Positions 1,866 to 51,192 of a stretch of DNA of 64,000 nucleotides are shown one piece after another; the stretch's first letter is position 1, and each line of letters starts with the position of its first letter. This stretch comes from Octopus sinensis (taxonomy: Eukaryota): assembly GCF_006345805.1 (NCBI RefSeq), contig NW_021836131.1:248001-312000 (forward strand), written 5' to 3'. The notes under the pieces are model-generated. The model had not been told where the DNA came from and made no database searches. It saw only the letters and a list, made by a program, of their open reading frames with translations. A program made the translations under genes and the position numbers.

Positions 1866-4848
1866 GGTGACGTGCCTCTATTGCACCAATGTCTTTCTCA
1901 CACTTGATATCTGCTGGCCCGTTCTCAATTGGCACTCTAAACGTTAGAGGACTCAATCCCATGTATAAACAACTTCAACTCACAAGAGATTTGGAACAAC
2001 GCAAGGTGTCCATCTGCTGCTTACAAGAGACGAAAATAACTGAACATGGAAGCTCGAAGATAGGCGATTACACACTAATTACCCTCCCAACTACCTGTCG
2101 TCACTACGGCCTTGGGTTTGCAATCAACAGAAAACTGGACGAACACATATCCCGGGTGTGGTCCGTCTCGGACAGGATTGCGGTACTCCAAATCAAATGG
2201 GGAACGAAACCGAACTCCCTCGTCACAATCATTAATGTGTACGCGCCAACTGGAGTCAGAGCCCTTGCTAATCCGGATGAACTTGATGAATTCTATTCCA
2301 CTCTCACAAATTTATACAACACACTCAGATCCTCGTATATGTGTTTCATTGCTGGTGACTGGAACGCCAGAGCAGGGAAAGCCAGGCCCGGAGAAACATG
2401 CATAGGATCCCATGGAAGAAACCGGAGAAATGTGCCTGGAACTGCCTTGATCCAATTCTGCACCTACTTAGACCTATTCTTATGCAACACGGCATTCCGT
2501 CATCCAGCCAGGCACAAAACAACATGGACTGGAACCAGAAAGGACTCAAATGGAAATTACATACCTATATTCAATCAAATAGACTACATCCTCTGCAAAG
2601 CTGCCCATAAACATCTACTTGTGGATTCACGTTCATACGGGGGACTGGAGACAAATAGTGACCACAAACTAGTAATCACTAGCATCGGACTGTACAAGAC
2701 ATACAACAAACTGAAAAAACTTACGCATGATGAACAAGAAAGCTATAATCTTGAATTATTCCGTGATGAAAAACTCAAACAGAACTATGCAGACAAACTA
2801 CAGGAAGAACTTGACAATATTGACACAACAAAACCTGCAAATGCGATTTGGGATGCAGTGACCAGTGCAATGAAGAAGACAGCTGTAAATGTTGTTGGAC
2901 TCACTCGAAAAAAACACAAATTTCACGATAACGAGATTTGCTCCCTCTCAGAAAGGCAGAAAACCTTGAGGTTAAAAATACAAAACTCCAGCAACCCGAA
3001 AAAAATAAGAGAACTCCGAAAATTACGGAACATGATATTACTAAATATCAAGAAAACACAGAAATTGCTAATGTACAAAGAAACAGAAGAGCAATTTCAA
3101 CACATAACAAAACAAAAGGACGACACGAAAATGTTCATGGCAATGAGGCTGCTAAGCAAAAAAAAGAGGCAAAATTCGATCACTGTCTGGGACACCACGG
3201 AAGCGGCTATCATTGACAACAAGAGTAAGGTAGAGGCTATATCTGAATACTACTACAAAATGCTTAACTGGGAGGATGAATCAGGATACAAACCCTACCC
3301 ATATACTGTAGGGGCACTAAGTTCCCCATTAACCACTTACGAAATATTGGAGGCAATGAAGAAACTGAAAACCGGCAGGTCTGGGGGACCGGACAATATC
3401 CCACCTGAACTAGTAAAATATGCGCCAATGAAGTTTGCTGAAATCGCTGCAAATATCCTGAACAAGGCATTTGAGCAGAACAACCCATTAGACCTCGGCA
3501 AAGGATGGTTAATTCCTCTACAGAAACCTGGAAAACAAAAAGGACCCCTATCCAGCCTAAGACCTATTATTTTGCTAACGACGCTTCGGAAAACACTGTC
3601 GTTGATCGCATTAGAGAGGATAAGAACCAAGGTGGAAAACTTTCTGTCACCGGGACAAAGTGGCTTTAGAACTGGCAGGTCCACTGCTGATGTGATCTGG
3701 ACTCACAGATGGACAGCTGCCACATGCCAAAAATATAAACATTGCACTGAAATACTCGGCATCGATATGTCCAGAGCATTCGACTCTGTTCACAGAACTA
3801 AACTTGTGGAAATACTTATGACCTTCTTAAATCATGACGACATCAGAATAATCCTAATGCTTCTTCAGAACACTCAATTAGCAACCAAACTTGGTAAAAA
3901 TGTGTCAAACTATTTCTACACATCACGGGGCATACCACAAGGCGATTCGCTGTCCCCAGTTCTCTTTATCGTCTACCTAGAGGCAGCACTCAGAGACTTT
4001 CGGCCTCTTGTGGACAACACTAAATACAACGAAATAATATATGCTGATGATGTCGACTTCGTATCTGATGATGCTGAAACCCTTCGATTTATTATCGAAA
4101 CATTACCAGATATTTTTTCCAAATGGTTTCTAACAATCAACCACAATAAAACTGAACATACGAAATTTATTCGATCTGAACGAACTCATGATGAGCCCTG
4201 GAGAAGACAAAAAAAAGTCGGATCTCTCTTAGGGGACTCTGAAGACATTATGCACAGAAAAATACTATCAATTGCCACATACAATAAGTTTATGAACATC
4301 TGGCGCCTAAAGAAGCTAAATTCAAAGACAAAACTTAAAATATACAACACATTTGTTGTCCCAGTCCTAATGTACAATGGATCGACGTGGGGAATCAGTA
4401 AGACCGATATGAACAATTTGGACCGATTTCATCGGAACCAACTGAGAAGAGTGATAAACATGCAATTCTCAAGGAAAATAGCAAATTCCACCCTATACAA
4501 AAGATGCAATTCGAGACCGATCTCTATGGACATCCTGGAGTCCAGATGGCGACTCTTTGGACACATATTAAGACTTGACAGCCTCACTCCGCCGAATATC
4601 GCGATGGAAAACTACTTTGCCCATTCCAAAGGAGACTTCCGTGGAAGACCCAGGGTCACTCTGGCTACCACGCTAAATGAAGATCTAGCTGGAATTAATA
4701 AAAAACTGAAAAATGGCGATGATCTCGACTCACTCAGGACGATCGCAACTGACCGGAGAGCCTGGAGACGCATGACCGGGAGAATTTCAATGGTGGCACA
4801 AGGAAAGCTTAATTAACTTATGACTTTTCCGAAAGTGCTTTATAATAA
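1866..4848 (+). mobile_element. RTE-clade LINE with intact ORF and 12-bp TSD
   Basis: TSD TAATCTATATTT at 1854-1865 and 4849-4860; (TAA)n 3' tail; 3'UTR stem-loop ACTTT-TCCG-AAAGT; only 23 nt 5' of the ATG. Confidence 0.93.
1889..4816 (+). CDS. APE endonuclease + reverse transcriptase (RTE ORF, 975 aa)
   Basis: TLNVRGL, LQETK, AGDWNA, IDY, SDH (APE); QSGFR, AFDSV, GIPQGDSLSP, YADD (RT); RWRLFGHILR...GRPR C-terminus. Confidence 0.97.
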   Translation: MSFSHLISAGPFSIGTLNVRGLNPMYKQLQLTRDLEQRKVSICCLQETKITEHGSSKIGDYTLITLPTTCRHYGLGFAINRKLDEHISRVWSVSDRIAVLQIKWGTKPNSLVTIINVYAPTGVRALANPDELDEFYSTLTNLYNTLRSSYMCFIAGDWNARAGKARPGETCIGSHGRNRRNVPGTALIQFCTYLDLFLCNTAFRHPARHKTTWTGTRKDSNGNYIPIFNQIDYILCKAAHKHLLVDSRSYGGLETNSDHKLVITSIGLYKTYNKLKKLTHDEQESYNLELFRDEKLKQNYADKLQEELDNIDTTKPANAIWDAVTSAMKKTAVNVVGLTRKKHKFHDNEICSLSERQKTLRLKIQNSSNPKKIRELRKLRNMILLNIKKTQKLLMYKETEEQFQHITKQKDDTKMFMAMRLLSKKKRQNSITVWDTTEAAIIDNKSKVEAISEYYYKMLNWEDESGYKPYPYTVGALSSPLTTYEILEAMKKLKTGRSGGPDNIPPELVKYAPMKFAEIAANILNKAFEQNNPLDLGKGWLIPLQKPGKQKGPLSSLRPIILLTTLRKTLSLIALERIRTKVENFLSPGQSGFRTGRSTADVIWTHRWTAATCQKYKHCTEILGIDMSRAFDSVHRTKLVEILMTFLNHDDIRIILMLLQNTQLATKLGKNVSNYFYTSRGIPQGDSLSPVLFIVYLEAALRDFRPLVDNTKYNEIIYADDVDFVSDDAETLRFIIETLPDIFSKWFLTINHNKTEHTKFIRSERTHDEPWRRQKKVGSLLGDSEDIMHRKILSIATYNKFMNIWRLKKLNSKTKLKIYNTFVVPVLMYNGSTWGISKTDMNNLDRFHRNQLRRVINMQFSRKIANSTLYKRCNSRPISMDILESRWRLFGHILRLDSLTPPNIAMENYFAHSKGDFRGRPRVTLATTLNEDLAGINKKLKNGDDLDSLRTIATDRRAWRRMTGRISMVAQGKLN

Positions 4849-5068
4849 TAATCTATATTTATTTATGTATAATATTAAAAAATATTTTTATTTAATGCGG
4901 CGAACCTTATCAACAATGGACATTATAACAAATTTGAATATTTATACACACTAAACCGTTCTTATTCTTCTTTGTGGTGTAATTAGAATAATTAGACGGT
5001 TTGTTAAAATTTCTTATTTATTAATTTAAGGCACTGAATCAGTTTTTAATATAAATATTAGTAGGGAG

Positions 5069-7547
5069 ATGCCTCTTTTATGGAATAAACCATTTGTAAA
5101 ACTACCCCAACCAAGTGATTTAGAAGACGAAGACGAAATATTCGTATGTTGGAGGACAGGAGAAATATTCCGTGATTATGAGAGTTACTATGAACGAGTA
5201 ATATGTGCAACAGTCTGGTGTGGGGATGTTCTTTGATTGGTGGAGACGGACTGACTTTAAGCCAGGCAGTTGCTTGTGAGAGTGAATGTCGGAGAGAAGT
5301 AGAAGAACTAACAGATCCCGTAATAAAGGGGATATTATATACACGGAATTTATTTGATGGGACTGATAAGGAGTCGTTGGTTGACAGTGTGTTTGAATTT
5401 GTGAGTGAAGTGCTCTTTGTGGAGAACCAATCGAATTCCGTGACAAAGAAGGGAATGGAATACGTGGGAGAGTTAGCAGAGTGGAGAGAGTGGGGGAGTA
5501 CTACGCCACTGCAGATGGAATAACATATCTGGCATATTCCCCACGGAGGATGATTGAATCTGTCACCAAGAGGAGAGTTGGGCTGTGTTTAAGTATGGAT
5601 TGGGAGAATGAAGACCTGGGGAATGTTTTTTCAAATATTCGGCCAGTAGTTGAGAAGAAAGGACAGTCTAAGGAGGCCAGAATTAGAAGAATTAAACGAC
5701 TGCAGTCTCACTACTGTTCACATCTACTGACTCCTAATGAAGATCTGCTTTGCCAAACTTTAAAGCCACTCCCGGACTATTTCCCACTGTCTCCCCTCCT
5801 TAGTGAGCATTTGGGAGACATTATGGCACTTGTTTACTTTGTTGATATGTTTGATCCGTTTTTGAGGAAATTCGGAGGGGGTTTTGATATTGACTGCGGT
5901 AAGAATATGTGAATATATTATAGAATTTATCGAAAGGGCAGTTTTGGGAGACAGAGAGCGTATGTTCACATTTACAGGAGAATTGTTGAAGGTGATTTGG
6001 GCCATGACGGGAGTGGACAAGAAGATTGATGTCCCATTTGGTTTACTTTCTTTTATATTTGATAGAAATGACCCACAATAACATCTCAGAATTTGTTAGA
6101 AGGACTTTTCTTTTGTGTGCGGAGGATAAATGTTCTTCCCAACAGTCTGAAGCATTGTTATTGACAAAGACGAGTGTATTTTGCTCATTGGAATATGAGG
6201 ACATGCACTCATTTCCTTCTGAACAAAAACTACTTCTTCTATCCTACCTTGTCCAAATTATTTCAGCACATCCACACTTTCGTCCTCATCTGGAAGCACT
6301 CAATAAAGACATTATTGCCCTCAGCAAGGAAATGGCTGCTCTCACGGCAGATGAGGCCATGAAAATGATCAAATACAACAGGACAACTAACCAGATCAAT
6401 CACGTTAAAACTGTTGGCAGGAAGGGCAAATGGTGGGATGAGAGTTCGGAGGACTCCGACGATCCTAACGAATCAAGGAGGGATTATAAACTCGCTAAAA
6501 TACACAAACGCAAAGAACAAATCAAGACACAACTTGACAAGTATAACAATATTCAGTTATTGGGAATGGACAGACTATATAGGAAATATTATTTATTCTC
6601 ACATGCTCTCTTTGTCGAGATTACTCCAAAAGCAGTATTTCTATTACAGTCAGTCATAGAGATATCTTTCTCGGCATAAACGAGTCAGACAACTTACGAT
6701 TGATCCCCACACTGAGACTTGGCAACAATTTGCTAATCGGTTTTCTCTCAATTTCAAAGATCCTCCTCACCCTCCACTCTCTTTTCAAGATGAGTTTGCC
6801 ACACTTATCACTCCTGTTTTTGATAACCCTGTTCCTCTCGACGGACTGCCTACATGGTCTGTTATACCAGACGAAGAAACATTAACTTTGTTGATGGACT
6901 CACTCAGTACAACTGGCGTGCGGGAGATTGCATTAAAGAAGGCATTGATTAAAAATAGAGACAACATAAAATTGTCTACTCCCATCCCAGTCCATGTACA
7001 AACTATATCTCCCCCAGTCATCTCACAGCTGGCCTACATGTCTTCTTTACTTACTCCAGATATAACTTACCAAATTCAGACTTCACTTGAATCTCTCTCA
7101 CTTCTCTCCCATAGACAACAAGTCACTCCTCTCGTCAATGCATTCGCGACTGTTGTACAGTCTGCCATTCCACAATCCATGCTTCCACCCTTTGGCACTG
7201 CACTCAAAACTAGAAGGGGGCGTAGATCCTCCGCGAAAAGACTGTCTCCTCTCCAGGATTGTGATTTTATGCAGTCTTGGATAACTCAGTTGAAAGAAGT
7301 CACAAATATGTCCCAGATTGCCACAATGCTGAGTTTATTCCAACGCCATGTTTTGTGGGACTGTCCAACCACTGTTTACTGCAAGTCTTGTCGGAAACTC
7401 AGAAAGTATGGGCTCGTCTTAACCTGTTCTGTTTGCTCATCTTATTACCACTCGGACTGTCTTCTTGATCATCCCATGGTTGTTTTTTTGCATTACTTGT
7501 AGAATAGCAATGTTCCCTGGGTGTGTAATCAATGTGTCCCACACTAA
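5069..7547 (+). CDS. BAZ1A: ACF1/BAZ1A-like chromatin remodelling subunit (WAC, DDT, WHIM, PHD; no bromodomain seen)
   Basis: MPLLWNKPFVK...EIFRDYESYYERVI-CNSLVWGCSLIG (WAC); LGMDRLYRKY (WHIM2); LSTTGVREIALK (WHIM3); C-terminal PHD. Mini-introns 5899-5923, 6041-6065, 7479-7502; several 1-nt frameshifts. Confidence 0.88.
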
Positions 7548-8600
7548 TATATTACATTTATATATTTGTTTTATTGATACTTTATTGTGAATATAAACTC
7601 AGACAAAACAGAATGAAACAGAATAGGGTAGGGAGATTCGTCAACGTATAAATCTGTAAAAGAAAATATGCAAAATTTACTTATATGTTGGGAAATTAGC
7701 AGACTGGATAGAGATTAGAAACAAATAATATCTGTCTGGAATATTTTATAAATTATGGTTATTGCGATAAAGGACGTGTTTTTGACATATTTTGTGTCTG
7801 GAAAATAGCTAGATTTCAGAATAAATGTTTAAAGATGAAATCACAAAATATTGCTATATTTAGAAACGGTTCATCTCCAAAACTAAATCTCTCCAATCTA
7901 CAGCGAAATTCAGTTCTTAATCTAAGTAGTTATAAATAGGACAATAAAATGGGTTATCATTTAAATTGAACACCACCTAAGAGTACAAAAATCATATGAT
8001 CCTCGCAATTAATTAAGAAAATATTCTAGCGGTTCTACAAATCAGAACTTTTTTGAATTGTTGTTCATTCTGTTTATGTTTTGCCAGGCTCTGTTGTCTT
8101 CTGGTCGTGTTATAATTAAATCTATCCATAACGATCTTAACTATATTTTACGTAAAATAATATAGTACTTGTAAACAAAAAATGTACGTGATAAAAATTG
8201 CCTAAAAAATATTAGTTGTACCTTAATTCGAAATCTTAACCCATGGATTAATGACTGATTAAGGAGGTGGCTACAGGTACCAAGGCCTAAAATTAATAAA
8301 TTTGTCTCACTACAAATCAATTAAATGTACTGAAAAATCAACAAAAACATCCCGCTGCTTTTTGCTAATTATAGTTTCTTCATTAGCAATGTCTGAAAAA
8401 TTTGTGGCCAACATTTTTAAAATTTCCAACTTTTTTTTGATTTTTCTATTTCTTTGCTAGGTGTAGATTTAGTTTTTTCTGGGTCTATAATAATTTTACA
8501 AACTTAATGAACTACGTCGGTGAACCGGACAGTTTATACGGAATGAAGGAATCTATAGTCTACACTTAACATTAATCAAGGAAATGAACAGATTGTTTTA

Positions 8601-10034: not shown

Positions 10035-12937
10035 CTACTTCATGAATATGCTGATATTTCTCAAAAACCTAAGATAATAAAAATAAAAAAACCTGCACTT
10101 GCAGCCGTCGGCACGATATCTTGAACAAAAGTTAAAAAAGTTCATTTTCTAAATACTCCTTAACATGTCAGGTTTAAATTTCAATTAAAATAATTATTTT
10201 TTGCCATAGTCTAATAGAATAAATAAATAATATTACAGAAGATTTATAATTTTTCTCATAACTTTCCCATGGCTGAATTTCGATAATAAGAATTCCACCT
10301 GGCAACAAATCAGCATAAATTCTCTGAAATGCTATTCGAAGACCTTCGTCGCCATTCACAAGATGAATCCACTTTGTGATACTTAAGCCTAATAAACATC
10401 ATATTGCTTCTTTGGAATATATCCGTCAAACTATCGATAACATAATTTTCCTAAAAATAAAATAAATCTATACGTAAACAGAATGATATATTCGATGGAA
10501 ATGATTCATTTCTATTTTTGTTGGGATTAGAAATGCTGCGTGAGGCTCTTAGAATAAGTGATTTGTCACATCTATTCCAAGGATATGTCGTGGATTAAAT
10601 CTTTTAGCAATCATAATCTTAATAATAAAATGGTATGGTGTGTGTCTGTCTGTCTTGTGTGTCCTGTCTGTCTGTGCACACCCACATTCAAATTGTTACA
10701 AACCAGATCAAATGTCAAAACCTTCCCTTTTGTAGTTATTCGATAATGAGGGCACAATAAAAGGTTGATATCCTCTAAGAACCTTCCTGTCAAAAAAGTT
10801 TAATAAGAAAGAATATCCTCGACGATGAGGTCCCCAAAACCTTCAAGTCAAAAAATTAAAACAAATTATTTTCTGCGTTTTTTGTTAAAATGAACAATAA
10901 GAAAGTCCTCGACTCACATGGTGTGGTCCCCCAAAACCTTCGAGCTCTTATAATAAAATGGTATGGTGTGTGTCTGTCTGTGGTGTCTGTCTGTCCTGTG
11001 CACACCACATTCAAATTGTTACAAACCAGATCAAATTGTCAAAAACCTTCCCTTTTGTAGTTATTCGATAATGAGGCCACTAAAAGGTTGATATCCTCTA
11101 AGAACCTTTCCTGTCAAAAAATTTTAATAAGAAAGAATATCCTCGATGATGAGGTCCCCCAAAACCTTCAAGTCAAAAAATTAAAAACAAATTATTTTCT
11201 GCGTTTTTGTTAAAATGAACAATAAGAAAGTCCTCGACTCACATGGTGTGGTCCCCCAAAACCTTCGAGCCAAAAATCAAAAAATTATTTTCTGCGTTTT
11301 TGTTAAAATGAACACAAGAAAGTCCTCGACTTAAAAAATGCACAAAAATTATATATAAACCAAAAAAAAAAAAAAAACCAAAATTAAAAAAAATGCAAAA
11401 CTTAAATCACATGAAAACAATGCAAACAGATAAAAATGAACAACAATAAAGAAAACCAATTTTGTACTTTAAAAATTAATAACGTATTTTTTCTAAATAT
11501 TTTTTTAATGATATTCGTTCATATTAGACATCTAAATTACAAATTGCCATTTATAATTACCTTGAATTGACTATCTGTACTCTTCTTCCTTATAATACAC
11601 AAAAGATGAAGCTAATTCTGTTTTCGATCGCCAAAATTTACCATGTTCAATTTAAAACAAGCTTTAAGCCTGTTTATGTTAGAGGCAATTTGAATAGAAT
11701 TGCATAGCAAATTTAATATATAATCCCTTCCAGCCAAAAGAGGCAATCTGAATAGAATTGCATACCAATTAAATATATAATCCCTTCCAGTCAAAAATTT
11801 TTTATTAGAAATTTAATAATGAATTTATGAATTTCACAAGGTCTATAATGCTAATGTTTAAATGCCTTAAAAATAGAGCCAATTAAAAATTCAAATTAGT
11901 CATCTAAATTACATTACCTTTATTCAAATCTTTCCTATATATCTCAAAAAAGTGGCTTATTATCTTTTTAATCGCCGAACTGACAACCTCAAGTATGCTA
12001 ATCTTTAAATTAAAAGTAAAAGCAAATTTTAATAAAGATTTACATAATTGATATCTATTGACAAGACATTTATGCGAAAACGCGTAGAAATATTAACTAT
12101 TTATTTCTGTTTTTTGCGTTAACTTTAAATTTATTTGGGGTATGCCTGTTTTAATTATCTATCTTATCGTTCTTAAATCTGTTAATAACTACTCGGTTGT
12201 TATGTGACTGTTGATTCTAATTTATTTTGTTTTTTAAGCTCAAAAATCAAAAATACTCCCCCCATCCCCCCTACAAAAATAGAAGAAAATACAAATCAAA
12301 AAAATGATGAAAATTAAAAAAATTAGAAGCGACAATATTAACAGGTAATACAGAGGTGAGTGTTTATATCCCACGAATACCTCTGATTTCGGAAGAATTA
12401 CCTTTTAGATTTAAGAGACTACATTTCCGCTGAAGATAAGTTTTGCTATGACAATAAACAAGGCCCAGGGACAGTCTTAAAAGGTAGTAGGCTTATTTTT
12501 AGAGAACGAGTGCTTTTTCACATGGCCAGCTGTATGTGGGGTGCTCAAGGGTAGGTAGAAGAGAAAATTTATTTAATATTGGCCAAGGATGGACGGACTG
12601 CAAACATCGTTTATCCACAGGCCTTAGAATAAGGTTATATCAAGCAGGTCGCATTTATATATCTACATAAATTTATACTTATTTAAGGAAACTGCGAGCG
12701 TAGCGAGCAGGGCCTCCGCAGGAGCTAGCTCGCAGTGAGCGAAGCGAACTGCTGAGCTAGTAGTAATATATCCAACGTTGCAGCCAATGTCCAATATATT
12801 TTTGTCTTTAAACCACTCACATTTCATAAGTGATAGTCTCGGATCTTCATTATTCTGAATTCTGTATCCATAATAACGATCGTAATTCCCATATGGAAAA
12901 TATTTTTTCTTGTTTTTTTCTTATTAATATTAGTCAT
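10035..12937 (-). pseudogene. MEPCE: 7SK snRNA methylphosphate capping enzyme (MEPCE/Bin3), coding exon interrupted by a Helitron
   Basis: FPYGNYDRYYGYR..DPRL..WFKDKNILDIGCNVGY (12761-12937) and [51 protein letters not shown] (10035-10616). Removing 10617-12760 restores GCNVGYITIMIAKRF in frame. Confidence 0.88.
10617..12760 (+). mobile_element. Non-autonomous Helitron (2.1 kb)
   Basis: A|TC 5' end, GC-rich hairpins then CTAG|T 3' end, no TSD; PIF1-helicase C-terminal remnant at ~12320-12632 (FAMTINKAQGQS, FSHGQLYVGCSRV, TANIVY); internal tandem duplication of the first ~330 bp (10617, 10946) and ~60-bp repeats near 11680-11790. Confidence 0.92.
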
Positions 12938-13550: not shown

Positions 13551-14512
13551 CTATTAGTCTGGTCAAATAATTTTATTTATGAAAATAAAATTTTCTACTT
13601 ATAAAGCTGAGGATTACCGTTGAATTTTTTAAGTATGAAAGAAAACTGGATTTTTGCTAAAAAGAATTCCAAAAAGATTCAATAATTTCTCATCTTTTGA
13701 ACGGGAATTTTCATTATTCACAGCACCATTCGCTTTTAATGCTTAAATGCAGATAAAAGATTACAAATGAAATTTTTAGAAATCCAATCGTATTCTATAC
13801 TAAATGCAAAATATTTGGAGGTTGGAATATCTTATTTCTTTACGCTTCTTTTTGGAAAGTTTAAACTTTAAAAAATTTTCTACCAAAATAATTTCTATGT
13901 TGGGTTTGAAAAATGTTTATAAACAACTTTTTTTATTTATAAAATTAACAAAAACTGTTCATAGAATACAGCTCACAAATGAAAATTTATCGGCTTTAAT
14001 TAAAGTCGGAATTATGTCAAAAATATCAATAATTCAGAAGTAGTTTCAAGCACGATTAAAAGATGATTAGATTTTCTTATTTTTGTTTTTACTATAAATT
14101 CGGCCTTAAAACGAAATTGATTTGACATTCTTGGTTTAAATGCTAGGATAGTTAAAACCTGAGTTTCCAATAAATGTTTTAAAATTAACTTTTTGTTAAT
14201 TTTTATATCAAATACAAGAATATTAATTGGTTTGTTAAGTTTTACTGACAATTTAAAATTATTGATTAAATTCTGAATTTTCCCATTTCCAAAATCTGCC
14301 GTCAATTTGACGGGAACTAAAAATGGCAAATTTGAGAGATTTAACTGTATATAAATAATCTGCAATGGTAGCAAGTCCAATCCTAAAAGGATTGTTTGCA
14401 CCTAAAAAAAATAGTCTATAGTCCTTAAAAATTCATCTTTGACCAGTAATTAGAACCCATAAAAAGAATAAAGTTTGGTTAGTAAAGGAAGATTTTAATA
14501 GCTAGATTAAAG

Positions 14513-15552
14513 CTATAATTTGAATCGAATTCTAAATTAATAACATAAATATTAAAACTTTTCACTGTTTTTAGATTTCATAAGTAGATATTTTTTTCTT
14601 TTAAGAATCAACATAAAACAAATAAAAGTGATTGTAATCAAAGAAATAATTCCAATAAAGATTATATAATTTTTATTTGATTTCCATAAGGTCTCTGAAA
14701 TTCACAAATGAAAAAATCAACCAGGTTTTTTATTAAATGCAACTTCTAAAAATTAAAAAAAGTAATAGCTTACGATCACTTTTAGTTCTAATCTTCGTAG
14801 AGAAAACTAAAAATTTAAAACATATGAATCACATGCGCTCGTCGTGATGGTGGCTAAAATATTTAAACATATAAATCACTTGTAGTTGTGCTCTTCGTCG
14901 TGGGGACTAAAATATTAAAATATATGAATCACTTGTAGTTGTGTTCTTCGTCGTAGGAACTAAAATATTAAAACATATAAATCACTTGTAGTTGTGTTCT
15001 TCGTCGTAGGAACTAAAATATTAAAACATACAAATCACTTGTAGTTTTACTCTTCGTGGTGGTGGCTAAAATATTAAAACATATGAATCACTTGTAGTTG
15101 TGCTGTTCGTGGTGGGGACTAAAATATTAAAACATACAAATCACTTGTAGTTTTACTCTTCGTGATGAGGGCTAAAATATTAAAACATATAAATCACTTG
15201 TAGTTGTGCTCTTCGTCGTGGGGACTAAAATATTAAAACATATAAATCACTTATAGTTCTGCCTACTTGTCTGCAGACTAAAATATAAAATTTTAATTTT
15301 GTTAACCCTTTTTATTATTTATGTCATTGGAATTTGCATATTTTATTATTTCATTGTCATTATTTCTTCTTTGTCTCTGCAAAACATGAAAATTTTAAAG
15401 CAAACCCTTGGAGGGCCTGTTTGCCAATAATTAATTGTTCGTATATCTTTGATTTCTTTTGAAGCATTTGTTATTTGTTCTATACAAATAAAAATGTAAA
15501 AATAGATATCACCTGTACATAAAATTAATACCAGAAACAATATGAAAAACAT
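14513..15552 (-). CDS. Mucin-like type I membrane protein encoded by tandem micro-exons
   Basis: Manual splicing: signal peptide MFFILFLVLILCT; ..WQTGPPR|RQRRNNDNEIIKY..; Thr-rich 9-aa exons (IPTTKSTTT etc.); TM exon YIIFIGIISLITITFICFMLIL-KRKK; last exon KIRFKL*. All introns GT-AG, 26-33 nt, frame consistent without corrections. Confidence 0.82.
14774..15277 (-). repeat. 53-bp tandem array = 27-nt exon + 26-nt intron
   Basis: Nine near-identical 26-nt introns (gtgatttatatgttttaatattttag) at 14807, 14854, 14907, 14960, 15013, 15066, 15119, 15172, 15225 separating eight 27-nt exons, one 21-nt exon and one 33-nt exon. Confidence 0.92.
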
Positions 15553-15899
15553 TATTCTTCACGATAAAAAACTAATTTATATTCTTTATAATTCTAATAA
15601 TTCATTTTTGGCATAGTTGTCGACCTATTATTCATGTAGTTCCGACATTAATTACAGCCGATAAATTTTCATTAAAGATATAGACATATAGAACCTTTCT
15701 TTTATAAATTAATTATCTGATTAAAAATAAGCTTGCAGAAGTCAACAAGATGCGGAATTATTTTAACAATAGTTGAATGCATGTTACAGTGTGTCAGAAG
15801 TTAAAGAAACATTTCTCATAATAGAATGGACGATTCCCAGAACTAACGCAAATTAACAAATTTTTTTCTATCCAGATTAATTGATAATTCTCTTAGTTT

Positions 15900-24740: not shown

Positions 24741-24950
24741 TTGTTCTCTCTTAGTTTGTTATTAATGTAATTCATTACACACATTTATTATATTTTACTG
24801 CTTTTAAATGAAAATAATTACAATTTGCTATTTAATTATTATTAATAATAAGCGGTAATTTTAATGTTTTAAATATATTCTAGTGTGTCGTCCGCATGTA
24901 CTTTTTTTCTAATAACAAATGTATATTCTCATAATAATTTTTTATTAGAA

Positions 24951-27900
24951 ATGTTATTTTTAAAATAATTCGATCAAGTCGAAACCTCTTAACTTAAAAA
25001 ATTTTTCATCTCGAAGAAACCCGCTAAACATCAAATGATCCCTAAAGAACTCCACGACTCTATTTTTGGCCAAAACAGCGTTTTTTATTAAAAATAAAAA
25101 ACAAGGTCTTTTACGAACAAGAACGTGTCATAAAAGCCCAAAAACACCTTCAAAACCTTTATAAAGAACTTCAATTTAGAATCTCAAACCGCCGATGACA
25201 TAACAATAAAGTTACCTGACCTTCCCGGCAAAAATATCGAGAATATGTTTTCAAAAATGGCCGAGTCTATCTCTCTTCCTTATTTAAAACTGGCAAATGA
25301 ACTATCAGAATGCCAGTCTCTCCCTTCAATGCCAAAAGAATGGAAAATGATAGAAGGTCTTTGTTTGTTTCATTTCAGGGTGGTTAAAATACAACGAGGA
25401 TGGCTCGGTAATACAAGTTGATTACCCAGAAGAAACAGCTCTTGTATTTGACGTTGAGACTCTCGTTCGAGAGGAAGGTCGTCCTGTCATGGCCGTCGCA
25501 CTTTCAGCAACAAATTGGTAATATTGGATATATATGATTAGGTATGGGTGGTGTAGTCGTTATTTAACCAATTCTGATTATTTTTATGGATCAAGAAGGC
25601 GACTTTCTGATCTTATTCCGATGGAGACAGTGGCTGATACTGACATGGCTAAAACATTCGTCTTCCATTCCAAGGCTTGTGGTAGGTCATAATGTCTCAT
25701 TTGATCGTTCTTTCATAAAGGAGGAATACCTCTTACAGGTCATATTTTATATATTATAACATAGGGGACTAAAATGAGATTTATTGACACAATGTCACTC
25801 CATTGCTTGTTCGGGATTCACGAGTGATCAAAAAATGGCCATTCGACAAAAGTCAATAGTGGAAGATGAGACAGAAGCTGAGATTTGGATGAATTTGGGG
25901 ACAACCAACTCCCTACAAGACGTCCATGCATATCACTGCAAAGGCCAACTCTTAAAAAAAGACCTCCGAAAAATATTCGTGACAGGATCAGTGACTGATG
26001 TACGTCAATCATTCAATGAACTTATTGATTATTGTGCTAATGACGTACTGGCTACATTCAGAGTATTTAGTCGTCTTTTTAAGTTGTATTGTTCTCGGTT
26101 TATTTTGATTTTATAACTTAAGATTTCCGTCGGATGTGACTTTGGCTGGAATGTTAGAAATGGGATCCATGTATTTGCCAGTAAACGAGAATTGGGAACA
26201 TTTTTTGAGTCGGTCACAAAATAAATTCCTCCAAGATGAAAAGAAAATAAAACGTCTTTTATTAAACGCGGCAAACAGCGCCGTGGCAAATATCAAAAAA
26301 TCTGCTGATTGTCCTTGGACCTGGGACCTTGATTGGAGAACAATTCCTTCAAACACAAAAAAATACCAAAAAACAACAAATCGATCAACTTTCTGAACTA
26401 TTCAAGAAGGAACGTGTTCTAAGCATGAACTATCTCAATGATTATCCACGTTAAGTAATCCTGGTTAAAATTGTCAGCTGGTATAGGAATATATGTGATA
26501 GCCCTCAAAGTAATGAAAGAACGACATTCTCTCCTTCGAATTTGTCACTTTCAAAGAGAATTGTCACTAAATTGCTAAAACTAAGTTTTTTTGGATGTCC
26601 GTTATTTTACCACTCCCTTTATGGCTGGGGATTTCTTGTTCCCGCGCTTGGAGTGACTGAAAGATCAGATACGGATAAATTATATCCTTATCCTTCAAAG
26701 TATTTGTTTGTGGTTTGAATTTTCAGATTTGCCCTTTTTAATATCGTAAAGTTTCTCTTTAATCATTCCGGAGAAAATTGTGACGATTTTTTGGAAAATA
26801 TTTTCAAAATGGGCCTGAAATACTCAATAATGTTGAGTTACGGAATAATACTTATTGGAAGGTTGTTTTAATTCATTTTATTGTAGTTAGGGAATTGGTT
26901 TGAGCGGAAATTAAGTTCCTATTGAAAAAAGAATCCCCCTTTTACAGGATGTCGATGGGGTACCTCCATCTTGGAATTTTTGTCGTTTTTTGAGACAAGT
27001 TATAAAAATTACTCAAATTATTATAGGATTGTTCAACTCGTAAAATCAACATGTTTTATGCAAGGAAAACGTTGAAAAACTCAAAAAAACGGTCAATTAG
27101 TCTCTGAGTTTGCTCCAGAATCCACAGATTGTTGATTGGGCCACAACTTTGACTTATTGGCGAAATAACCTTGATAGAATTAAGTTTAACAATTAAATAC
27201 ATTTTGAGGTCTCAATACGTCGTTGGTTAAATCAAAACGAGATTGCTTCCCCAACCTCCAAAGGTTTATTTGGGGCAATACTTCCACGTGTTATTGTCTC
27301 AGGGACAGTGACGAGACGGGCAGTTGAGCCTACATGGCTGACTGCTAGTATGCAAGAGTATTTGTTAGCTTTGATTACTATCAGACTGATCGTATTGGTA
27401 GTGAACTGAAAGCTATGATTCAATCGCCCGTGGACTATCATTTGTTGGGGCAGATGTAGATTTAGAGGAGTTGTGGATTGCTTCTCTTCTTGGGGATGCA
27501 TATTTTTCAAAAATTCATGGCAATAAGTTTTTTGTGAATTTTTAGGAAGTACTGGGTTTTCGTGGATGCTTCATCAGGAAGTAAATCTGAGGGTCCGATC
27601 TCCATAGTCGCACTGCTGAGATCATTGGACTCTCTCGTTCTCAGGCTAAGGTTTAAATTGGAATATTTGTTTAGGTTTTAATTTTTCCCGAATTTATGGT
27701 TCTGGAGTAAACTCAACTGCCGCAATGATGATGGCCTGTAATGCGAAATTGTCGCAGGAGGAGGCTTTATTAAAGGCAAATAATTTGTATCGTCAGACGA
27801 AAGGGAGACGTGTGAGGTTTACTAATATATTTAATCTTTTTAGCCTATCCAGAGATTATCGATGGGTTGGAGGAAGGTATATTTCTAAATCATTTGTTAG

Positions 27901-28490
27901 CGAATCTGACGTCTTTAATGTGATGGAGGCAATTGCATTTTAGAGAACCCTCGTACTCCATTTCTAGGTTGTCTTATATCACAGGCACTGACACCGTCGG
28001 CTGTTGGTCAAAAAGTAGTTATTTTTTACAAAAATAGTTTTCTCGTTCTCGGCTAAATTGGGTTATACAGAGCTCTGCTGTCGATTTTTTGCATTTATTG
28101 CTCACAGCAACTCGTTGGTTGATGTCGGATGCTGGAATTAGTGGCCGTCTGGCACTCAGCATTCACGATGAAGTACGATTCATAATGCCTTCTTCTAATC
28201 GTTATGAAGCTGCATTTTATTACAAGTTGCGCATCTTTTAACGAGGTGTGCCTTTTCTAATTCTCTTGGAATGAGAGATCTCCTTCTGTGGTGTGTTTTA
28301 ATATTGTTATAGTGTGTGGGCGTACTTTTCGTCGATAGAGATTGATCGGTGTATTAGGAAGGAACCATCTGACTCTTGTATTACTCCTTCTAATCCATTG
28401 GGGATGTTAAAGGGCTATGATATTCCCGATGGTGAATCACTTGGCATTGAGAAGCTTGTTGAAAAAAATAGTAATCTCAATCATAATTGA
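24951..28490 (+). CDS. POLG: Mitochondrial DNA polymerase gamma catalytic subunit
   Basis: RRNPLNI, LVFDVE (ExoI), GHNVSFD (ExoII), YCANDV (ExoIII), [31 protein letters not shown] (A), [10 protein letters not shown] (B), [23 protein letters not shown] (C), ITPSNP; many ~22-30 nt introns and some 1-nt indels. Confidence 0.95.
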
Positions 28491-35648: not shown

Positions 35649-38600
35649 TTTTTTTATTTTGCACGTTGTTGTTGTGGTGGTGCACTTTTTCTTTTCATTT
35701 GTTCTTTTGTAATTTGGTATTCAATAATTCATTGTTGTAATTGTCATCTATCTAATAATTATTCTCTGTTTATTCTTTTTCTGATCCTATGTCTCCCTGC
35801 AGCAAGTGCGAACCTACGTGCCCTCGGAAAAAGGGAAGTTATTGTTCTTCGTGCCAACTCTACTTCCACCTCTCCTGTGTCGGCTTATCGAAGATCAGCT
35901 TGGCAAGCATCGCAAACTGGAAATGTTTTCGCTGCTCTTCTACTCCTCTGTACATCGAGGCCCCGACTCTTCCCAAAATACCTAAGGACCGGTCTTGTTC
36001 CAAAGCTCGCGAATTCTCGTACTTTTGTCTCGTTTTCGGAAATCGAAGTCTATCCCATTCCTAAATCGGCCAGGATCCAAGTTGCTAACTCCTTGGCTCT
36101 GGCTATTGAGCGGGCTCTGGCCTTGAATTCTTGGAGCGATTGGCTCAAGTTTCTCTCATTTGTCCCTGTCTGTGGGCAGCCCTTTAAACGGCACTCTTCG
36201 TGGTGACCGCTTGTTCGTCTCGCAGCAAATTAAAACAAACTGCGAGTTTTTCAACAATTCAGAATTTGATATGAGCTATTTTTCCCTTGATGCTGCTGAA
36301 AGGATCCCTCGTCCAATTCGGAGCACTCAGGACATTTCTCGAATGGTTCGCAGCAAGCTTATCAAGGCGACGTTCGGAGTGCAGTACGTGTTATTTCCTC
36401 GAACACCACAATTGCCCCCCCTTCTGACAAAATCCTCGACCAATTGCGCTCTAAACACCCAGGATGATCTATCTGAAATCCCAGATCTGGTGACTGATTC
36501 TATATATCCCGTCTCTTCGACGGAAGTAACTGCCGCCCTCAGCTCTTTCCCATTCAGTAGCAGTGGGGGTATGGATGGCTCGAAACCGATTCATATAAAA
36601 GATCTGATTTCCCCTGTTACTGCAGAGGGTGGAAGACGCTTATTGTTGGCCATCACTTCCCTCTGCTCAAGAATCATCTCTGGTACGATCCCTCCTTTCG
36701 CTAGGGACGTACTCTTTTCCGCAAATCTGACTGCTCTTAACAAAAGTGATGGTGGTGTACGGCCTATCGCTGTGGGCAACATCTTCAGACGCCTGGCTGC
36801 TAAAATTATTTGTCAATCAGTGGTTCCGAAAGCAAGTGCTAAGCTTATGCCATTTCAACTGGGCGTGGGCGTGAAAGGAGCCTGCGAAGCAGCCGCCCAT
36901 TGCATACGGCAGCTGTCTTCTGCAAAATGTACTGAAATCCCATTCCTCCTTAAAATTGATGTCAAAAACGCGTTCAACTCGATTCGGCGCGATCATATCC
37001 TTGAAACTGTCCGATGTCGTTTCCCTGCCTTATACCCGATCGTCCATCTGTCTTACGCCTCCCCCAGCTGTCTCTTGTTTGCCGACAATGTTATTATGTC
37101 CGAAACTGGTATTCAACAAGGCGACCCTCTTGGGCCCCTTTATTCTCACTCGGTGTTGATCACATTGCCCGCCAATTGTCCTCCGAGGTAAACATTTGGT
37201 ACCTCGATGATGTTACTCTCGGCGGGGCTTTGGAGACCGTCAGGAATGATATAGAAAAAATTATTTCTGGTTTGCCTCCTTTGGGCTCGCTTTGAATGGA
37301 TCCAAATTCGAGCTGATATGCTTGTCTGCGAGCCCTTCGGAATTCAAACTTATTTTTTCCACCTTATCTCACCATATTGAAGGCCTGGGCATCACCCAGC
37401 TTGATGACCTCATCATTCTGGGTTCCCCAATCAATAGCAAGGCTACTAAGAAGGCTTTATGTGACAGGCTCGAAGAATTGGAAACTCTAATCTCCCGCAT
37501 TTCCAAACTTGAATCCCATTTGGGCCTTTTCTTGCTCAAGAACTATCTCTTTATACCAAAGCTAACTTATCTCATGCGCTCATCGCCCTGCTTTCTCGAA
37601 CAAGATCACTTGTCTTGTCTCGACAACATGGTCTCCAAAGCTCTTGAGCTTCTCGTAAATATCAAATTCAAACCTTCAGACATGCGACGGGTTAATTTAC
37701 TTATTCGTTACGGGGGCATCGGCATTCGTTCTTGTGTTGATTTATCCCTCCCATGTTACCTTTCCTCGTTGTCTGCCTCTGCTAGTTCCTTCAACTCTGT
37801 TCTCTTCCCCTCCCCTGAACAGCCCGAGTTGTTGGAATATACGGCGGGTGTCAACATGTGGATTTCTCGTGGGCTTAAAATCCCGGACGCCCCCTCAGTT
37901 CAAAAGAACTGGGATGATATACATTGCTCCCATGTACTCGAAGACATCCGCCTACGTGCTGACCAATTTCAGTTGGCAAGCATCAATTGTGCCTGTCAAC
38001 CCCACTCGGGCGATTGGCTTGACGCTTTGCCGATTTCCTCGGCTGGAATGTTGCTGGACGACGAATCTGTCCGCATCGGAATCTGTTTACGGCTTGGCAT
38101 AGAGATTTGCCAGCCGCACCATTGCAGATGTGGACAACTCATTGACAGGAGAGGTTTACACCCTCTCTCTTGTCGCCTCAGTGCCGGCAGGATCCCCAGG
38201 CACGCCTCATTGAATGACGTTGTGAAGCGCGCGCTTAACGCCGCTGGATTTCCCTCGATGTTGGAACCGATAGGACTAGACCGTGGAGATGGAAAACGCC
38301 CCGACGGGTCGACATTATTCCCGTTCAGGAAGGGAATGGCACTCGTGTGGGATGTTACCTGCGTAGACTCATTTTCTCCATCATCGCTGGTTGACTCCGC
38401 TTCTCGTCCTGGATCTGCATCTGCCCTTGCCGAATCTAGGAAAACTGCAAAATATGCCTCTTTGACCGATTCCTGCTGCTTCATTCCCCTGGCTTTTGAG
38501 ACCAGTGTGATAATTGGACTTAAAGCCCTCAAACTCCTCTCAGAGATTGGTTCAATCATCTCGAGGAGGAGTCACGACAGTCGCGAAACGAGCTGGCTTT

Positions 38601-38711
38601 TTCAGCGGATATCGTTCGCGATATTACGTGGAAATTGCCTGTCCATCCGCTCGGCGACTCATCTAAATTAGTTAATTTCTCTTCTCTATTTTTCTTGTTT
38701 TTTAAAAAAAA
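35649..38711 (+). mobile_element. Full-length CRE-clade non-LTR retrotransposon (PHD-RT-CCHC-RLE)
   Basis: TSD AACAGACGA at 35640-35648 and 38712-38720, A-tail; ORF 35789-38671 with a few frameshifts: PHD (CSKC..CSSCQLYFHLSC..WKCFRC), RPIAVG, NAFNS, GIQQGDPLGP, WYLDD, CRCG..HPLSC..RH, KRPDG..WDVT..K..KY. Confidence 0.93.
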
Positions 38712-39460: not shown

Positions 39461-42425
39461 ATGGCGTCAATTATTTTATTATAATAATTCTATTTTAAGA
39501 TATTTTGTTTATTCCTAATTGTTATTTTATCAATTAAGTTCAAATCGTCATATTTGCGCTTTTAAAGAAATTTTAAACTAGTTCTGAATCAGGTGTGTAT
39601 TTTAATATATAATTAATTTGCCAAAATGAATCATTTATGATTCACATCAATACATAAAATTTATATAGATTGACCCAGATGAATCAATATTTAAGTCCAT
39701 TGATCTCACATAAAGAAAATCAGCAGCTCATATACTGTATGGGGAGAGGAAGAGAAGTATGTAACCTAATAATACGTGATTTAATATATAGATAATATAT
39801 TCTACTATTGCTCAACTATATAATGTAAACAACGATATACCTCGTTCATGGAGACACCAAGCAACAGGAGTAATTTGTTTAGTGAAAAATCATATTGGAA
39901 AATGTTTTGTTTTGGCATTTTATAATCTTAAATCAGTATTTTTGTCAAATTCATCTCTAAAGTGTGAACTAATTCTGAAACAAGATCTTTATTATAAAAT
40001 GCCTTATTCTGAACAGACACAGTTTCTTCATTCTTTTGAAACTAAAGTTTGACTATTTTTTATATTGATTTGACCTAATTTCTTGAATTTTGGTCATATA
40101 TATATGCTTTACTTTGACTTTGTTAGGACTCAGTTATCGGATTGAACTTTGCCTTTGGGCAAGACGCGAAAAAATTTATTAAAAACGTTCAAACCAAGCT
40201 CGAAATGATCCGCAATATACGAGGTAGGAATATTATTTTATTTTAATATTTCTATGATTCAATATTATACATTACACTATCATTTTATTTCATAATTTAA
40301 TTTTTAGAAAAAGGATTTTACAATATCGACTCAACAAGTTCTCGTTTGTGTATTTCATTTACTTATTTTTAGCTGAATCTACCACAAGAAAAAGCAAATC
40401 TGTAATTGAAAAATTTAAAAAGGTTTAATTAACATATTTAAAACATCAGATTTAAAAAATAAAAGTCGTAAAATTTCATTCTTTGGAAAAAAAGATACAA
40501 GTAATAATGTTTAAAAGAATTCTAGATGATTTTGATTATGGCAATTGTCTGATTTCTGAACCGAAGGATCCTCATGTTGTTTTACACTATGGAGAATCTG
40601 TAAGTCAAATTGTAGCTTTATTTATTTTAAAGGGGATTGTACTTGATGAAAAAGCTAAAAATAAATTCAGTGAGATAGGATATACTGATGATCAACTAAA
40701 AGACCCAAAAATCGTACAATCGCTCATTTCTTCTATTTCTAATTGTAAAGGAAACCTAAATGAAATAAAAAATACTGCTCCCAAAAAAACTAAAAAAAGT
40801 AATAAATAATTTTTCTACTTCTTAGGTTCTAAATCAAAGAAAAAAGAAAGCCAGAATTTAGTTAATGTTGACGATATAGTAATCGGAGAACCGCGTAACC
40901 CAATGTAATTTCAATTAGAATTTTTATACTATTAGACACACAGGGGAAGCTGACTTGACATTAAAATATGGCATGAATTTTGGTATGTAAATCTATGAAA
41001 TCATTAATTTTAGATAATGGCTCAAAATATTGTTTTAATAAGATTGGCGATAATGACGTTAAAAGTAATGAATAATATATTATTTTTAGCTGAAATGTCT
41101 ATTCCTGTCGATTTTGAATCGATTAATGACATGTCATCAAATACGCCATTAAATAAGAGTTCATTGTCAGGTATGAAGTCTGTTTGAAACATCAATTCAG
41201 ATTCACAATTTAATATTCATTCGAACATGCAACCAAATTTTATGCCTCCTCCGTTTGTTCCCGATAAATTTTTTAGATCTGAACAATTGGATATATCAAA
41301 TAATTTATCACAAAAACCCTTGCCATCGTCATCTCAAATAATCACAAATCCATTTATTGCTCGTTCAAAAGTCGAAAACATTGAAATTCCAAAACAAGTT
41401 TTTTCACATGCTCCCAATACTTCTCTAAACCCGCCACTGCCAAACATTTTTACAGACCAATTCCCGAAATCAACTTTTTCACGACCCTCTATAGATAATC
41501 TTCCAAAAAAATCATTTTCACGACCTCCTCCAGATACACTTCCAAAATCTACATTTTCAGTTCCTCCTTCGAATGAACAGCCTAAACCACAAAGAAATAT
41601 ACCATCTTCAAAGTTGGATTTGTCCTCTGATGTAAAATCGCCAACTTCATCAATTCCCCGATTAAGTGGTTGTTTTGATGTTCCAAATTTTCTACCCCCA
41701 TCAAATTTTTCGCCATTAAATCAAAAAATAAACAATGATTCTTCATCAAATTTCATTTCCTCTGATATTGAATCAAGGGGAGGAAATGTTAATAAAAATA
41801 TGCCTTCTAAAATGAGCTCATATAAGCAAACTCATGGTTCAAATTTATCACCAGAGTCAATTATGTGGCCTACAAAAGCAACACCCTCTGATCAAAAAGA
41901 AATGAAGTTACTAAAGCCGACCAAAAAAGAAAAATAGAGGTTTCATTGGTTATGATATTTTCAAGTTGGATTCAATTGAAGATAAAGTATCAGAAAAGAT
42001 ACATGTACCAACACCTCCAACTGCCTTAAATATTCCATCAAAAAAAGATAATAATTTACCTGATAGAAGTATTTTTAACAACATAATTTTATAAAGGCAA
42101 TCTTCTTTTTCAAATTCGAAGTGGTAGTCCAAAATTAAAGAACACGGAATTCACCCCAGCTAAAGAACACAAAGACAATGCCAAACCAGCCAGTAGTGTT
42201 TATTTTAGTTACATTTATTAGATTTACTGAGCGAAATAAGATCTGGGAAAGCACTTCGTCATGTTTCTCCTGAAGATAAAAACCCAAAAAATGACATTAA
42301 ACCCGTACCAGGAATAATGCAGTCTGTTATTGATGTCCTTAATGAACGTAAAGCCGATTTATATTCCTCTGGTGACTTGTTTTGACTTTAATTTTGTAGA
42401 TACCAGTGAAGGGGAAGCTTGGTAA
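39461..42425 (+). CDS. WASL: WASP/N-WASP family actin nucleation promoting factor
   Basis: WH1 (WRHQATGVICLVKN..FLHSFET..IGLNFA), CRIB/GBD (ISEPKDPHVVLHYG..FSEIGYTDDQLKD), Pro-rich 41227-41937, WH2 (LLSEIRSGKALRHV), C (VLNERK), terminal EAW*. Confidence 0.85.
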
Positions 42426-49592: not shown

Positions 49593-50911
49593 TTTTTTTT
49601 TTTTTTTAGAACAACTAACAATTAACACCGAAAATAGTTAAGTTCCAGCGGCGAGGACGCAGTGTGCGTTGCCCCGAACAATGGCCAGGCCGATGCGCTG
49701 GCGGAACCAGAGGCTCTCTCTCGAGTCCTTGAGCCTCCTCCCGATGGACTGCCCGACCTTTTTGAGGAACGAGTCAGTCTCCTTTCCTGCAACTCCAGCG
49801 GTCTCCAGGGCGATTGCCGTAACGCGGTAGCGGTCCGCGAGCGAAGAATATTTGTGTATTTTGATCTTTTCGGCGTGGTTTGCAGCCGAACAAGGGTTTG
49901 CCGCAGAAGAATGGATCCTCGATTTCGAAAAGGTATCCACAACGGTGACATCCCATACGAGGGCCTTCCCCGACGAGTACGGGAATATTGTCATCCCGTC
50001 AGGCCTTTTGCCATCTCCCCGATCGAGTCCGACCGGTTCGAGGAGGCACGAATGGCCCGCCATTTCGAGACCGGCCTTTACGATTTCATTGAGGGCCTTG
50101 TGTCTGTGTTCCCTGCCTGCGCTCCTCTTGCAGGAAAGTGGGTGCAGTCCCTTTTCGTCAACGTCCTCACCGCATCTGCAGCGGTGTTTTGCACAAACAT
50201 CCAGGCCGAGACGGTGAGCCACTCCGATGCGTATGGCAGCATCGTCTAGCCACGTCCCGATGCTGGAGAGAGGAAGAGCATTCAGCCAGCTGCCAGAGTG
50301 AGGGGCGGATGCCGCACGAAGGCATGCCAGGCGGTGTTGATCAAGGGTTGCCGAGAGCTCAGACACACGCGCTCGGCATGCGATAGAGTCCCAGGCACGT
50401 TGGGAGGAGAAATCTTCGGGCCTCTCAGAAAAGGAGCGATCCCAGGTAGCGAGCCCATCCGAAAAAGCACCATCCAGGCAAGATCCGAAAGAGTTGAGTA
50501 GGATCTCAGAGGCCAGGTTGTTGCACATCGAAAGGGAGGATAGATATGCCGGAAGTGCCACATCGGATGCAGTGCGGATTCCCGCACCTCCGAATCTCAA
50601 TGGGAGCGAGCATTGGGCCCATCCAGGACCATCGAGGTGTACATTGAGGACGGATTCGGCAGTCTTTTTCAGGATTACGTCGTATGCGGCGAGTAGGTCC
50701 ATATGCAGGAAGCAGGGATTGCTCCTGAGGGTGAAATGAGTTTCGGCATGTGAATGCTGTTCTTCAAGAGGAAAAAGGCAGTGTGCGAGGACAAGATAGA
50801 AAGGTTTGTAGAAAGTCTTTGGAAGTGTTCGGCTTTGGCGGAAAGCATGCATTGGAGCTTCGTGTAGGACAGGGATCCACCGAGAAAGGTGAATCATCGA
50901 TTGGGGTAACG
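49593..50911 (-). mobile_element. 5'-truncated CRE retrotransposon, young insertion
   Basis: Poly(A) (T-run 49591-49607), TSD TTCTAGTATAATT at 49580-49592 and 50912-50924; ORF with CRCG..HPLSC..RH and KRPDG..WDVT RLE. Confidence 0.93.
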
Positions 50912-51192
50912 TTCTAGTATAATTCTTATAAAACACGGAAAAATTTCAAATTTACGTTTGCCTAGCTCAAAAATTATGTGAATTATTAGAAATAAATATA
51001 CAAATATCAACTTATCAAGTTTGAAATGTGGATTTTCTGAGAGCTGAGAATAATCAACAAATCCCTATAAAAATGGAGTCTCATCATTTGTTCACTCCAA
51101 AGGCTCAATACTCCGTTAAGCAATTAAATAGTTAATTAGGTTTTTATTAATAAAGGATAAATCGAGTTAGTGTGAAAATCATGCAACTTTCA

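Follow-up and report, generated by a model that had tools for sequence, protein, structure and literature searches.

A 53-bp tandem array on a probable dicyemid contig forms a run of symmetric micro-exons in a predicted mucin-like gene

Introduction

Does a 53-bp tandem array on a contig of the Octopus sinensis assembly, which resembles a CRISPR locus, encode a protein, and if so, is the length of this protein varied by splicing or by changes in the DNA? The array is situated in a stretch of 64,000 nucleotides that was analysed as a whole (the window, to which all positions refer), and an earlier note had interpreted it as a cassette of micro-exons in a gene for a mucin-like surface protein. 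The explanation that we favour, and hold to be reasonably probable, is that the array represents exons 4-13 of a membrane-anchored mucin-like gene, likely of a dicyemid, in which a tandemly copied unit is constitutively spliced and the stalk length varies between alleles.

Exon-intron structure of the array gene

Tandem Repeats Finder reported the 53-bp unit with 8.3 copies and 87% matches at positions 14854-15290, and ten units were distinguished by alignment. Read on the minus strand, each unit consists of an A+T-rich 26-nt GT...AG segment and a 27-nt segment with G+C contents of 17% and 45%, respectively, and the step from 45% to 17% coincides with the exon-intron junctions of the array. 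A walk from the ATG at position 15552, which is preceded by an in-frame stop three codons upstream, resulted in a gene of 16 exons and 219 codons with an open frame (15552-14479, minus strand), in which the array makes up exons 4-13. All 660 coding bases are intact, as are the 30 splice sites of its 15 GT-AG introns of 26-34 nt.

All of the following features are located on the minus strand. Exon 1 (40 nt, 15513..15552) contains the ATG and a hydrophobic stretch that is predicted to be a signal peptide, with the hydropathy peak at residues 1-2. It is followed by intron 1 (33 nt, GT-AG, 15480..15512), which is in frame and stop-free and, judged from its sequence, could be retained. Exon 2 (74 nt, 15406..15479) covers a unique part of the N-terminus and contains one N-glycosylation sequon, and the Asn-rich exon 3 (70 nt, 15307..15376) is enclosed by introns 2 and 3 of 29 nt each (15377-15405 and 15278-15306, respectively). 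The array begins with exon 4 (27 nt, phase 1-1, 15251..15277), a diverged unit at the 5' edge that is identical to exon 5 at 14 of 27 positions. Exons 5-11 (14880..15224) are seven 27-nt core units in phase 1-1 that fall into two types, A (exons 5, 7, 9, 10, and 11) and B (exons 6 and 8); 63% of their 63 residues are Ser or Thr and five are Pro, and sequons occur in exons 7, 9, and 10. Exon 12 (21 nt, phase 1-1, 14833..14853) is a shortened unit with 14 of 21 positions identical to exon 5.

At the 3' edge, exon 13 (33 nt, 14774..14806) is the tenth and likewise diverged unit. Within these first 27 nt, 18 positions are identical to exon 5, and a repeat-type donor comes next. The exon may therefore be either 33 nt long or, if the upstream one of the two tandem donors (14779) is used, 27 nt. 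Beyond the array, exon 14 (24 nt, phase 1-1, 14722..14745) is not repeat-derived and is situated between introns 13 (28 nt) and 14 (27 nt). Exon 15 (129 nt, phase 1-1, 14566..14694) encodes a predicted transmembrane helix (hydropathy of 2.8 over 19 residues) and then a basic stop-transfer cluster, and, after intron 15 (34 nt), exon 16 (53 nt, 14479..14531) provides the end of a short predicted cytoplasmic tail and the stop codon. In-frame alternative donors on the same strand were found at 14774-14779, where the two donors of exon 13 are 6 nt apart, and at 15050 and 15156, both of which are GTA and situated 12 nt inside the type-B exons 6 and 8.

The layout described in the earlier note was confirmed on the minus strand: introns 4-12 are nine near-identical GT-AG introns of 26 nt (from 15250-15225 to 14832-14807, span 14807..15250; 17% G+C compared to 45% in the exons), and the exon sizes (27 nt in eight cases, 21, 33, and then 24 nt), the phase 1-1 and the listed peptides all match. 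Exons 4-14 hence form a succession of eleven micro-exons, every one in phase 1-1, which together comprise 294 of the 660 coding nucleotides (45%). Left unspliced, the array contains 9-16 stops per frame in all six frames, and retention of any single one of introns 2-14 truncates the product ahead of the membrane helix (57-164 residues).

Evidence for a protein-coding gene

The array itself is weak evidence for a gene. The pattern of the 26-nt intron has nine matches in the 64-kb window compared to none in 100 shuffles, but when the 53-nt unit was shuffled and repeated perfectly in tandem, a chain of at least eight symmetric "introns" also arose in 780 of 2000 trials. This last result is what could be expected if the locus were a non-coding minisatellite or a CRISPR-like array with a splice-like pattern by chance, a reading that we consider extremely improbable for several reasons. 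Through the unique flanks, the array is connected in the correct phase to the leader and the membrane helix, the contig is eukaryotic, and the RNA structure of the array is no stronger than that of shuffled sequences (z = 0.65). Furthermore, the putative "spacers" are nearly the same, whereas those of a CRISPR array would be unique; differences between the variable parts amount to about 17% of sites, and two of these parts are identical. A CRISPR array was rejected for this reason.

It is the unique flanks that carry the case for a gene. Upstream, an ATG with a hydrophobic leader is linked by a spliced route to the array, which is entered in phase 1; such a route was found in 0 of 1000 dinucleotide shuffles and at 3 of 1000 random places of the window, with thresholds that, as for the downstream flank, were fixed only after the gene had been seen. 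Downstream, the array can be spliced onto a hydrophobic helix of 19 residues that is followed by basic residues; such a route occurred in none of 1000 cases in either control. The longest symmetric micro-exon chain of the window is that of the array gene with 12 introns, compared to three to five in ten shuffled windows.

When the longest frame starting at position 15552 was searched for without guidance and with introns of 20-35 nt only, 14 of the 15 introns were recovered, and the 33-nt intron 1 was kept in frame. When introns of up to 120 nt were allowed, further open routes through the array were found; the junctions are therefore not fixed by the frame alone, but depend also on the size prior and on composition. 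A gene model on the plus strand was discarded, since the invariant GT/AG positions, read by hand, yield no A+T-rich intron together with an exon of 3n nucleotides. Taken as a prediction, the model of a signal-like N-terminus, a micro-exon mucin stalk and a membrane helix that the earlier note had put forward is supported by the flank test and by the intron sizes of conserved neighbour genes (see below). We consider this predicted gene model sound.

Predicted product and searches for relatives

According to its hydropathy, the predicted protein comprises a hydrophobic N-terminus, a Thr-rich stalk, a membrane helix and a short tail, and would be a membrane-anchored mucin-like surface protein. 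Basic clusters are related to membrane topology by the positive-inside rule, which predicts a type I orientation in this case.

Protein searches for relatives, for which single exons and short stretches were used, gave weak negatives throughout. With the membrane exon as a single-exon query, no relative was found among longer proteins, and an N-terminal stretch of 49 residues that includes the translated intron 1 had none among proteins of near length. Homology to the SmPoMuc mucins of Schistosoma mansoni was observed neither for the membrane exon nor for the N-terminal stretch, both of which are short queries in unspliced frame and hence weak negatives. The best Atlas matches reached 0.84 and 0.80, which is below the useful range, and no Pfam domain was detected in exons 2, 3, and 15. 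A metagenome scan with the junction pattern gave no match. In the 36 of 64 parts scanned with the N-terminal stretch, a single match of ten residues (L001) was encountered, which we attribute to chance, as the matching sequence is G+C-rich, has no donor after the match and is accompanied by no similar array. Within the 64-kb window, tblastn, blastn, and the intron pattern revealed no paralogue or second copy of the array. No dicyemid micro-exon or mucin gene of such design was found in the literature, as far as covered by mostly open-access papers and, for mucins, by titles and abstracts.

The array gene is bracketed by a 48-nt inverted repeat (13978-14025 and 15626-15673) with 85% complementarity and a palindromic core, of which only two copies exist in the window. 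The arm at 15626-15673 lies upstream of the ATG, at a distance of about 75 nt. Candidate explanations are a shared promoter element or the ends of a transposon; the idea that the repeat marks an inverted paralogue found no support, because the similarity fades after approximately 50 nt.

Neighbouring genes and source of the contig

BAZ1A-like, POLG and WASP genes were identified in the window; these are animal genes, and most introns in them are shorter than 30 nt. In case of POLG (24950-28490), 19 introns were called by spliced alignment to a profile of 31 relatives (950-1320 residues, from 150 fetched), 12 of which are 20-27 nt and seven 38-102 nt long, with several of the longer ones in poorly aligned parts. 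A calibration set of 11 introns, composed of the 12 short POLG introns minus two with doubtful ends plus one WASP intron, ranges from 22 to 27 nt with a median of 25. The TBCE-like gene was left out of the intron sizing, since its ab initio model broke at a frameshift. In the WASP-like gene (39936-40307), the 27-nt intron coincides with a nine-residue gap relative to the solved WAS WH1 domain. It occurs alongside introns of 80 and 84 nt, and longer introns thus persist in the source organism; the 80-nt intron is flanked by WH1 profile positions 11-85 and 88-110, the latter part being under the Pfam cut-off. Introns of 26 nt are therefore ordinary for this contig.

The contig likely derives from a dicyemid that was co-sequenced with the octopus, an assignment that is based on the intron size in animal genes. 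Polymerase gamma is known only from animals and fungi, and its presence speaks against a ciliate or apicomplexan source. The best-matching relatives of the POLG gene share at most 52% identity. In the available text of a comparison of 51 animal genomes, introns this small are reported only for myxobolid myxozoans and Dicyema (PMC13644364). For Dicyema, the mean intron size is given as 26.2 nt (n = 16) or the median as 27 nt (PMC2222250, PMC6543705). The miniature introns of dicyemids have reduced splice signals, and their size fits the 22-34 nt observed here; the accessible parts of the corresponding papers describe no micro-exon arrays (PMC2222250, PMC6543705, PMC6736024, PMC13644364).

Several neighbouring loci were noted in passing. 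The BAZ1A/ACF1-like gene (5068-7560; WAC, WSD, PHD) consists of long exons with few introns and appears rich in G in the first half and in C in the second (G+C skew of +0.14 and -0.09, respectively), and a piece of it used in a protein search had no relative among longer proteins. A methyltransferase gene (10070-12937, minus strand) appears MEPCE/Bin3-like by eye, with a Pfam MTS match at an E-value of only 0.023, and is interrupted by about 2 kb with tandem duplications of 325, 93, and 57 bp. Long frames at 36127-38671 and 49638-50945 resemble non-LTR retroelements with a C-terminal nuclease region, again judged by eye.

In the homology alignment, POLG is disrupted by six frameshifts and one stop, and the TBCE-like gene, which starts at 31782, breaks early, from which it follows that the contig holds dead copies or read errors. 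The idea that the POLG frameshifts are homopolymer read errors found no support in a crude test, in which the runs concerned comprise two to four bases (mean of 3.2 compared to 3.4 at random places). In light of these disrupted genes, the array gene might be a silent duplicate of a once-real gene, or its unit number might be inexact in an assembly of low coverage. We regard this as very unlikely, given the complete set of intact coding bases and splice sites described above, an unbroken retroelement frame of 981 codons (1871-4816) in the same window, and a number of amino-acid changes per site among the units that is lower than that of silent changes.

Origin of the array units

The array likely arose by repeated tandem duplication of a 27-nt exon together with its 26-nt intron. 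Per 53 sites, units 6 and 8 differ at three positions, units 5 and 11 at one, and units 9 and 10 at two, compared to 6-12 differences between types A and B. One intron site co-varies with type B, which indicates that exon and intron were copied together. Diverged edge units around a similar core are the pattern expected from unequal crossing-over, and the duplication history of the array shows such edge units, one A-B pair that was copied once, and two identical neighbours. A higher-order duplication of 106 bp, as suggested in the earlier note, is visible for units 5-8 (identity of 0.94 at lag 106 compared to 0.86 at lag 53), but not for the array as a whole (0.865 and 0.860, respectively). 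Four pairs of sites cannot be reconciled with one tree; all of them include the same intron position, which suggests conversion or recurrent change.

The symmetry of the exons can be explained without reference to splicing, since only an exon of 3n nucleotides with equal phases multiplies without a break of the frame. Exons 14 and 15 are also in phase 1-1 without being repeat-derived, and this is left unexplained by unit duplication.

The proposed concentration of variation in the exons amounts to a trend: among units 5-11, variable columns number 11 of 27 in the exon and 4 of 22 in the interior of the intron (Fisher p = 0.12), with 0.17 and 0.07 differences per site, respectively. Pairwise pS (0.26) exceeds pN (0.13) and introns show the lowest values (0.06-0.07), in a small sample of seven exons with non-independent pairs. 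These values fit a constraint on the minimal intron and mild purifying, not diversifying, selection on the peptide. As to the idea that the exon differences toggle N-glycosylation sequons, two of seven amino-acid changes (counted by hand) create a sequon compared to 3 of 58 possible changes; at a P of about 0.05 for a comparison chosen post hoc, this is borderline and a hint only.

Length variation by splicing or in the DNA

According to the earlier note, any of the exons could be skipped in frame, and the skipping would control stalk length and glycosylation. The first part is largely correct, as 11 of the 12 single skips among exons 4-15 leave the frame open, but a skip of exon 13 leads to a TAA at codon 141, ahead of the helix. 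The last base of exon 12 gives rise to a stop codon when joined to exon 14 or 15. If free skipping is assumed, 1536 of the 2048 computed subsets of exons 4-14 keep the anchor and correspond to 1140 distinct anchored proteins, in addition to 190 distinct truncated ones. The exon 13 skip may be either a flaw in the free-skipping model or a route to a shed form.

These numbers, and the succession of eleven short symmetric exons between leader and helix, would suit a true micro-exon gene, in which the 27-nt exons would be skipped combinatorially to yield many stalk lengths and glycosylation patterns per allele as well as unanchored forms lacking exon 13. The array introns furthermore start with GTG, the rarer donor type (one of the 11 calibration introns, compared to six with GTA), and weak splice sites and short exons have been reported to favour skipping, which accompanies short introns in a few eukaryotes (PMC6142364). 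A single-exon skip spans 79 nt and is within reach given the 80- and 84-nt introns of the WASP-like gene, and a micro-exon surface protein gene has been described in a myxozoan (PMC7923790, PMC8481699). Nevertheless, we consider such a gene unlikely. The symmetry of a tandem array requires no splicing cause; only five distinct peptides occur among the seven core exons, so that skipping would alter mainly length; and the micro-exons do not constitute the majority of the coding sequence. The low pN relative to pS is opposed to the raised dN/dS of some micro-exon genes (MEGs; PMC4350168), the introns of which measure 0.1-5 kb (bioRxiv 10.1101/2023.06.21.545858). In a survey of 42 species, as far as its available text goes, cassette exons are associated with introns of more than 200 nt and, although many ESTs were available, none were found in Paramecium, which has 25-nt introns (PMC2397502). 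The events most often regulated in P. bursaria are intron retention and the use of alternative acceptors (PMC12862383).

Combinatorial skipping of the exons thus finds no support in the sequence, and a variation based on splicing appears less likely than constitutive splicing of a coding minisatellite. In the latter, favoured explanation, the tiny introns would be recognised by the spliceosome across the intron, which would favour the inclusion of every exon. Each 53-bp unit would add nine codons and one whole intron in the same phase, and units could hence be gained or lost by crossing-over or slippage with the frame kept. Unequal crossing-over or slippage would change the number of units, which is about ten in the one haplotype analysed, and the stalk length would then differ between alleles and not between transcripts. 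An extended stalk measures 2.5 angstrom per residue. Each additional unit would contribute about six more O-glycosylation sites and lengthen an extended stalk by roughly 2 nm.

Comparison to known systems

The closest precedent, in our best reading, is SmPoMuc of S. mansoni rather than the MEGs, and the array gene would represent an SmPoMuc-like duplication of exon and intron, shrunk about twenty-fold. In SmPoMuc, a 27-bp exon is part of a genomic repeat of approximately 1 kb, and length variation is partly ascribed to unequal crossing-over (PMC2576457). Both are characterized by a tandem unit of a 27-bp exon, which encodes a nine-residue repeat, plus an intron, by two exon types and by a (predicted) parasite mucin (PMC2576457). 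The Ser/Thr/Pro-rich repeat peptide and the tandem arrangement of short exon and intron are both present in the array. Introns that are more alike than exons are reported for SmPoMuc and for spider silk repeats (PMC2576457), and the array points in the same direction (p = 0.12). Differences are the size of the unit (about 1 kb compared to 53 bp in about ten units) and the predicted membrane anchor of the array gene. Moreover, SmPoMuc is described as a multigene family with microsatellite spacers and excess transcript repeats (PMC2576457), whereas a single copy of the array was found in the 64-kb window.

In case of the schistosome MEGs, the likeness suggested by the earlier note extends to the run of short symmetric exons behind a signal-like leader and to the secreted or anchored product, which is a prediction here (PMC4350168). 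It does not extend to the long introns and to the micro-exon majority of the coding region. Since these two defining features are lacking, the array gene is not classed as a MEG. MEGs have introns of 0.1-5 kb and demonstrated skipping (bioRxiv 10.1101/2023.06.21.545858, PMC4350168) compared to the 26-28 nt of the array introns. The array exons, in addition, are recent copies of one unit, account for 45% of the coding sequence, and have a pN lower than pS, a comparison among units and not among orthologues.

Tandem exon-intron blocks with concerted evolution are also known from Coccidioides SOWgp and spider silk genes, which have much larger units and encode unrelated proteins (as described in PMC2576457). 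Tb-MEG1 of the myxozoan Tetracapsuloides bryosalmonae is, by its description, a comparable micro-exon surface protein of a reduced animal parasite (PMC7923790, PMC8481699). The array gene displays a known architecture in miniature, and its particular features are the 53-bp unit and an intron that is shorter than the exon; probably, this architecture is new to the phylum.

Significance

It is tempting to speculate that an animal with 26-nt introns might have evolved, independently in a dicyemid, a 53-bp cassette with schistosome-style skipping, more than 1000 anchored variants, and a shed form without exon 13. We regard this as distinctly unlikely; if true, it would mean antigenic variation by splicing in a layout where skipping is thought to be nearly impossible. 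The array gene is well suited to test cleanly whether exon skipping is possible at all for a spliceosome that is adapted to introns of 25 nt. If splicing is constitutive, as we favour, the locus would be a neat but ordinary case of tandem duplication of exon and intron, and a near-minimal version of a known design. The predicted product is a candidate for a surface protein that faces the host, in a group of parasites that has hardly been studied, and its gene is hidden by repeat-masking and probably also from gene finders.
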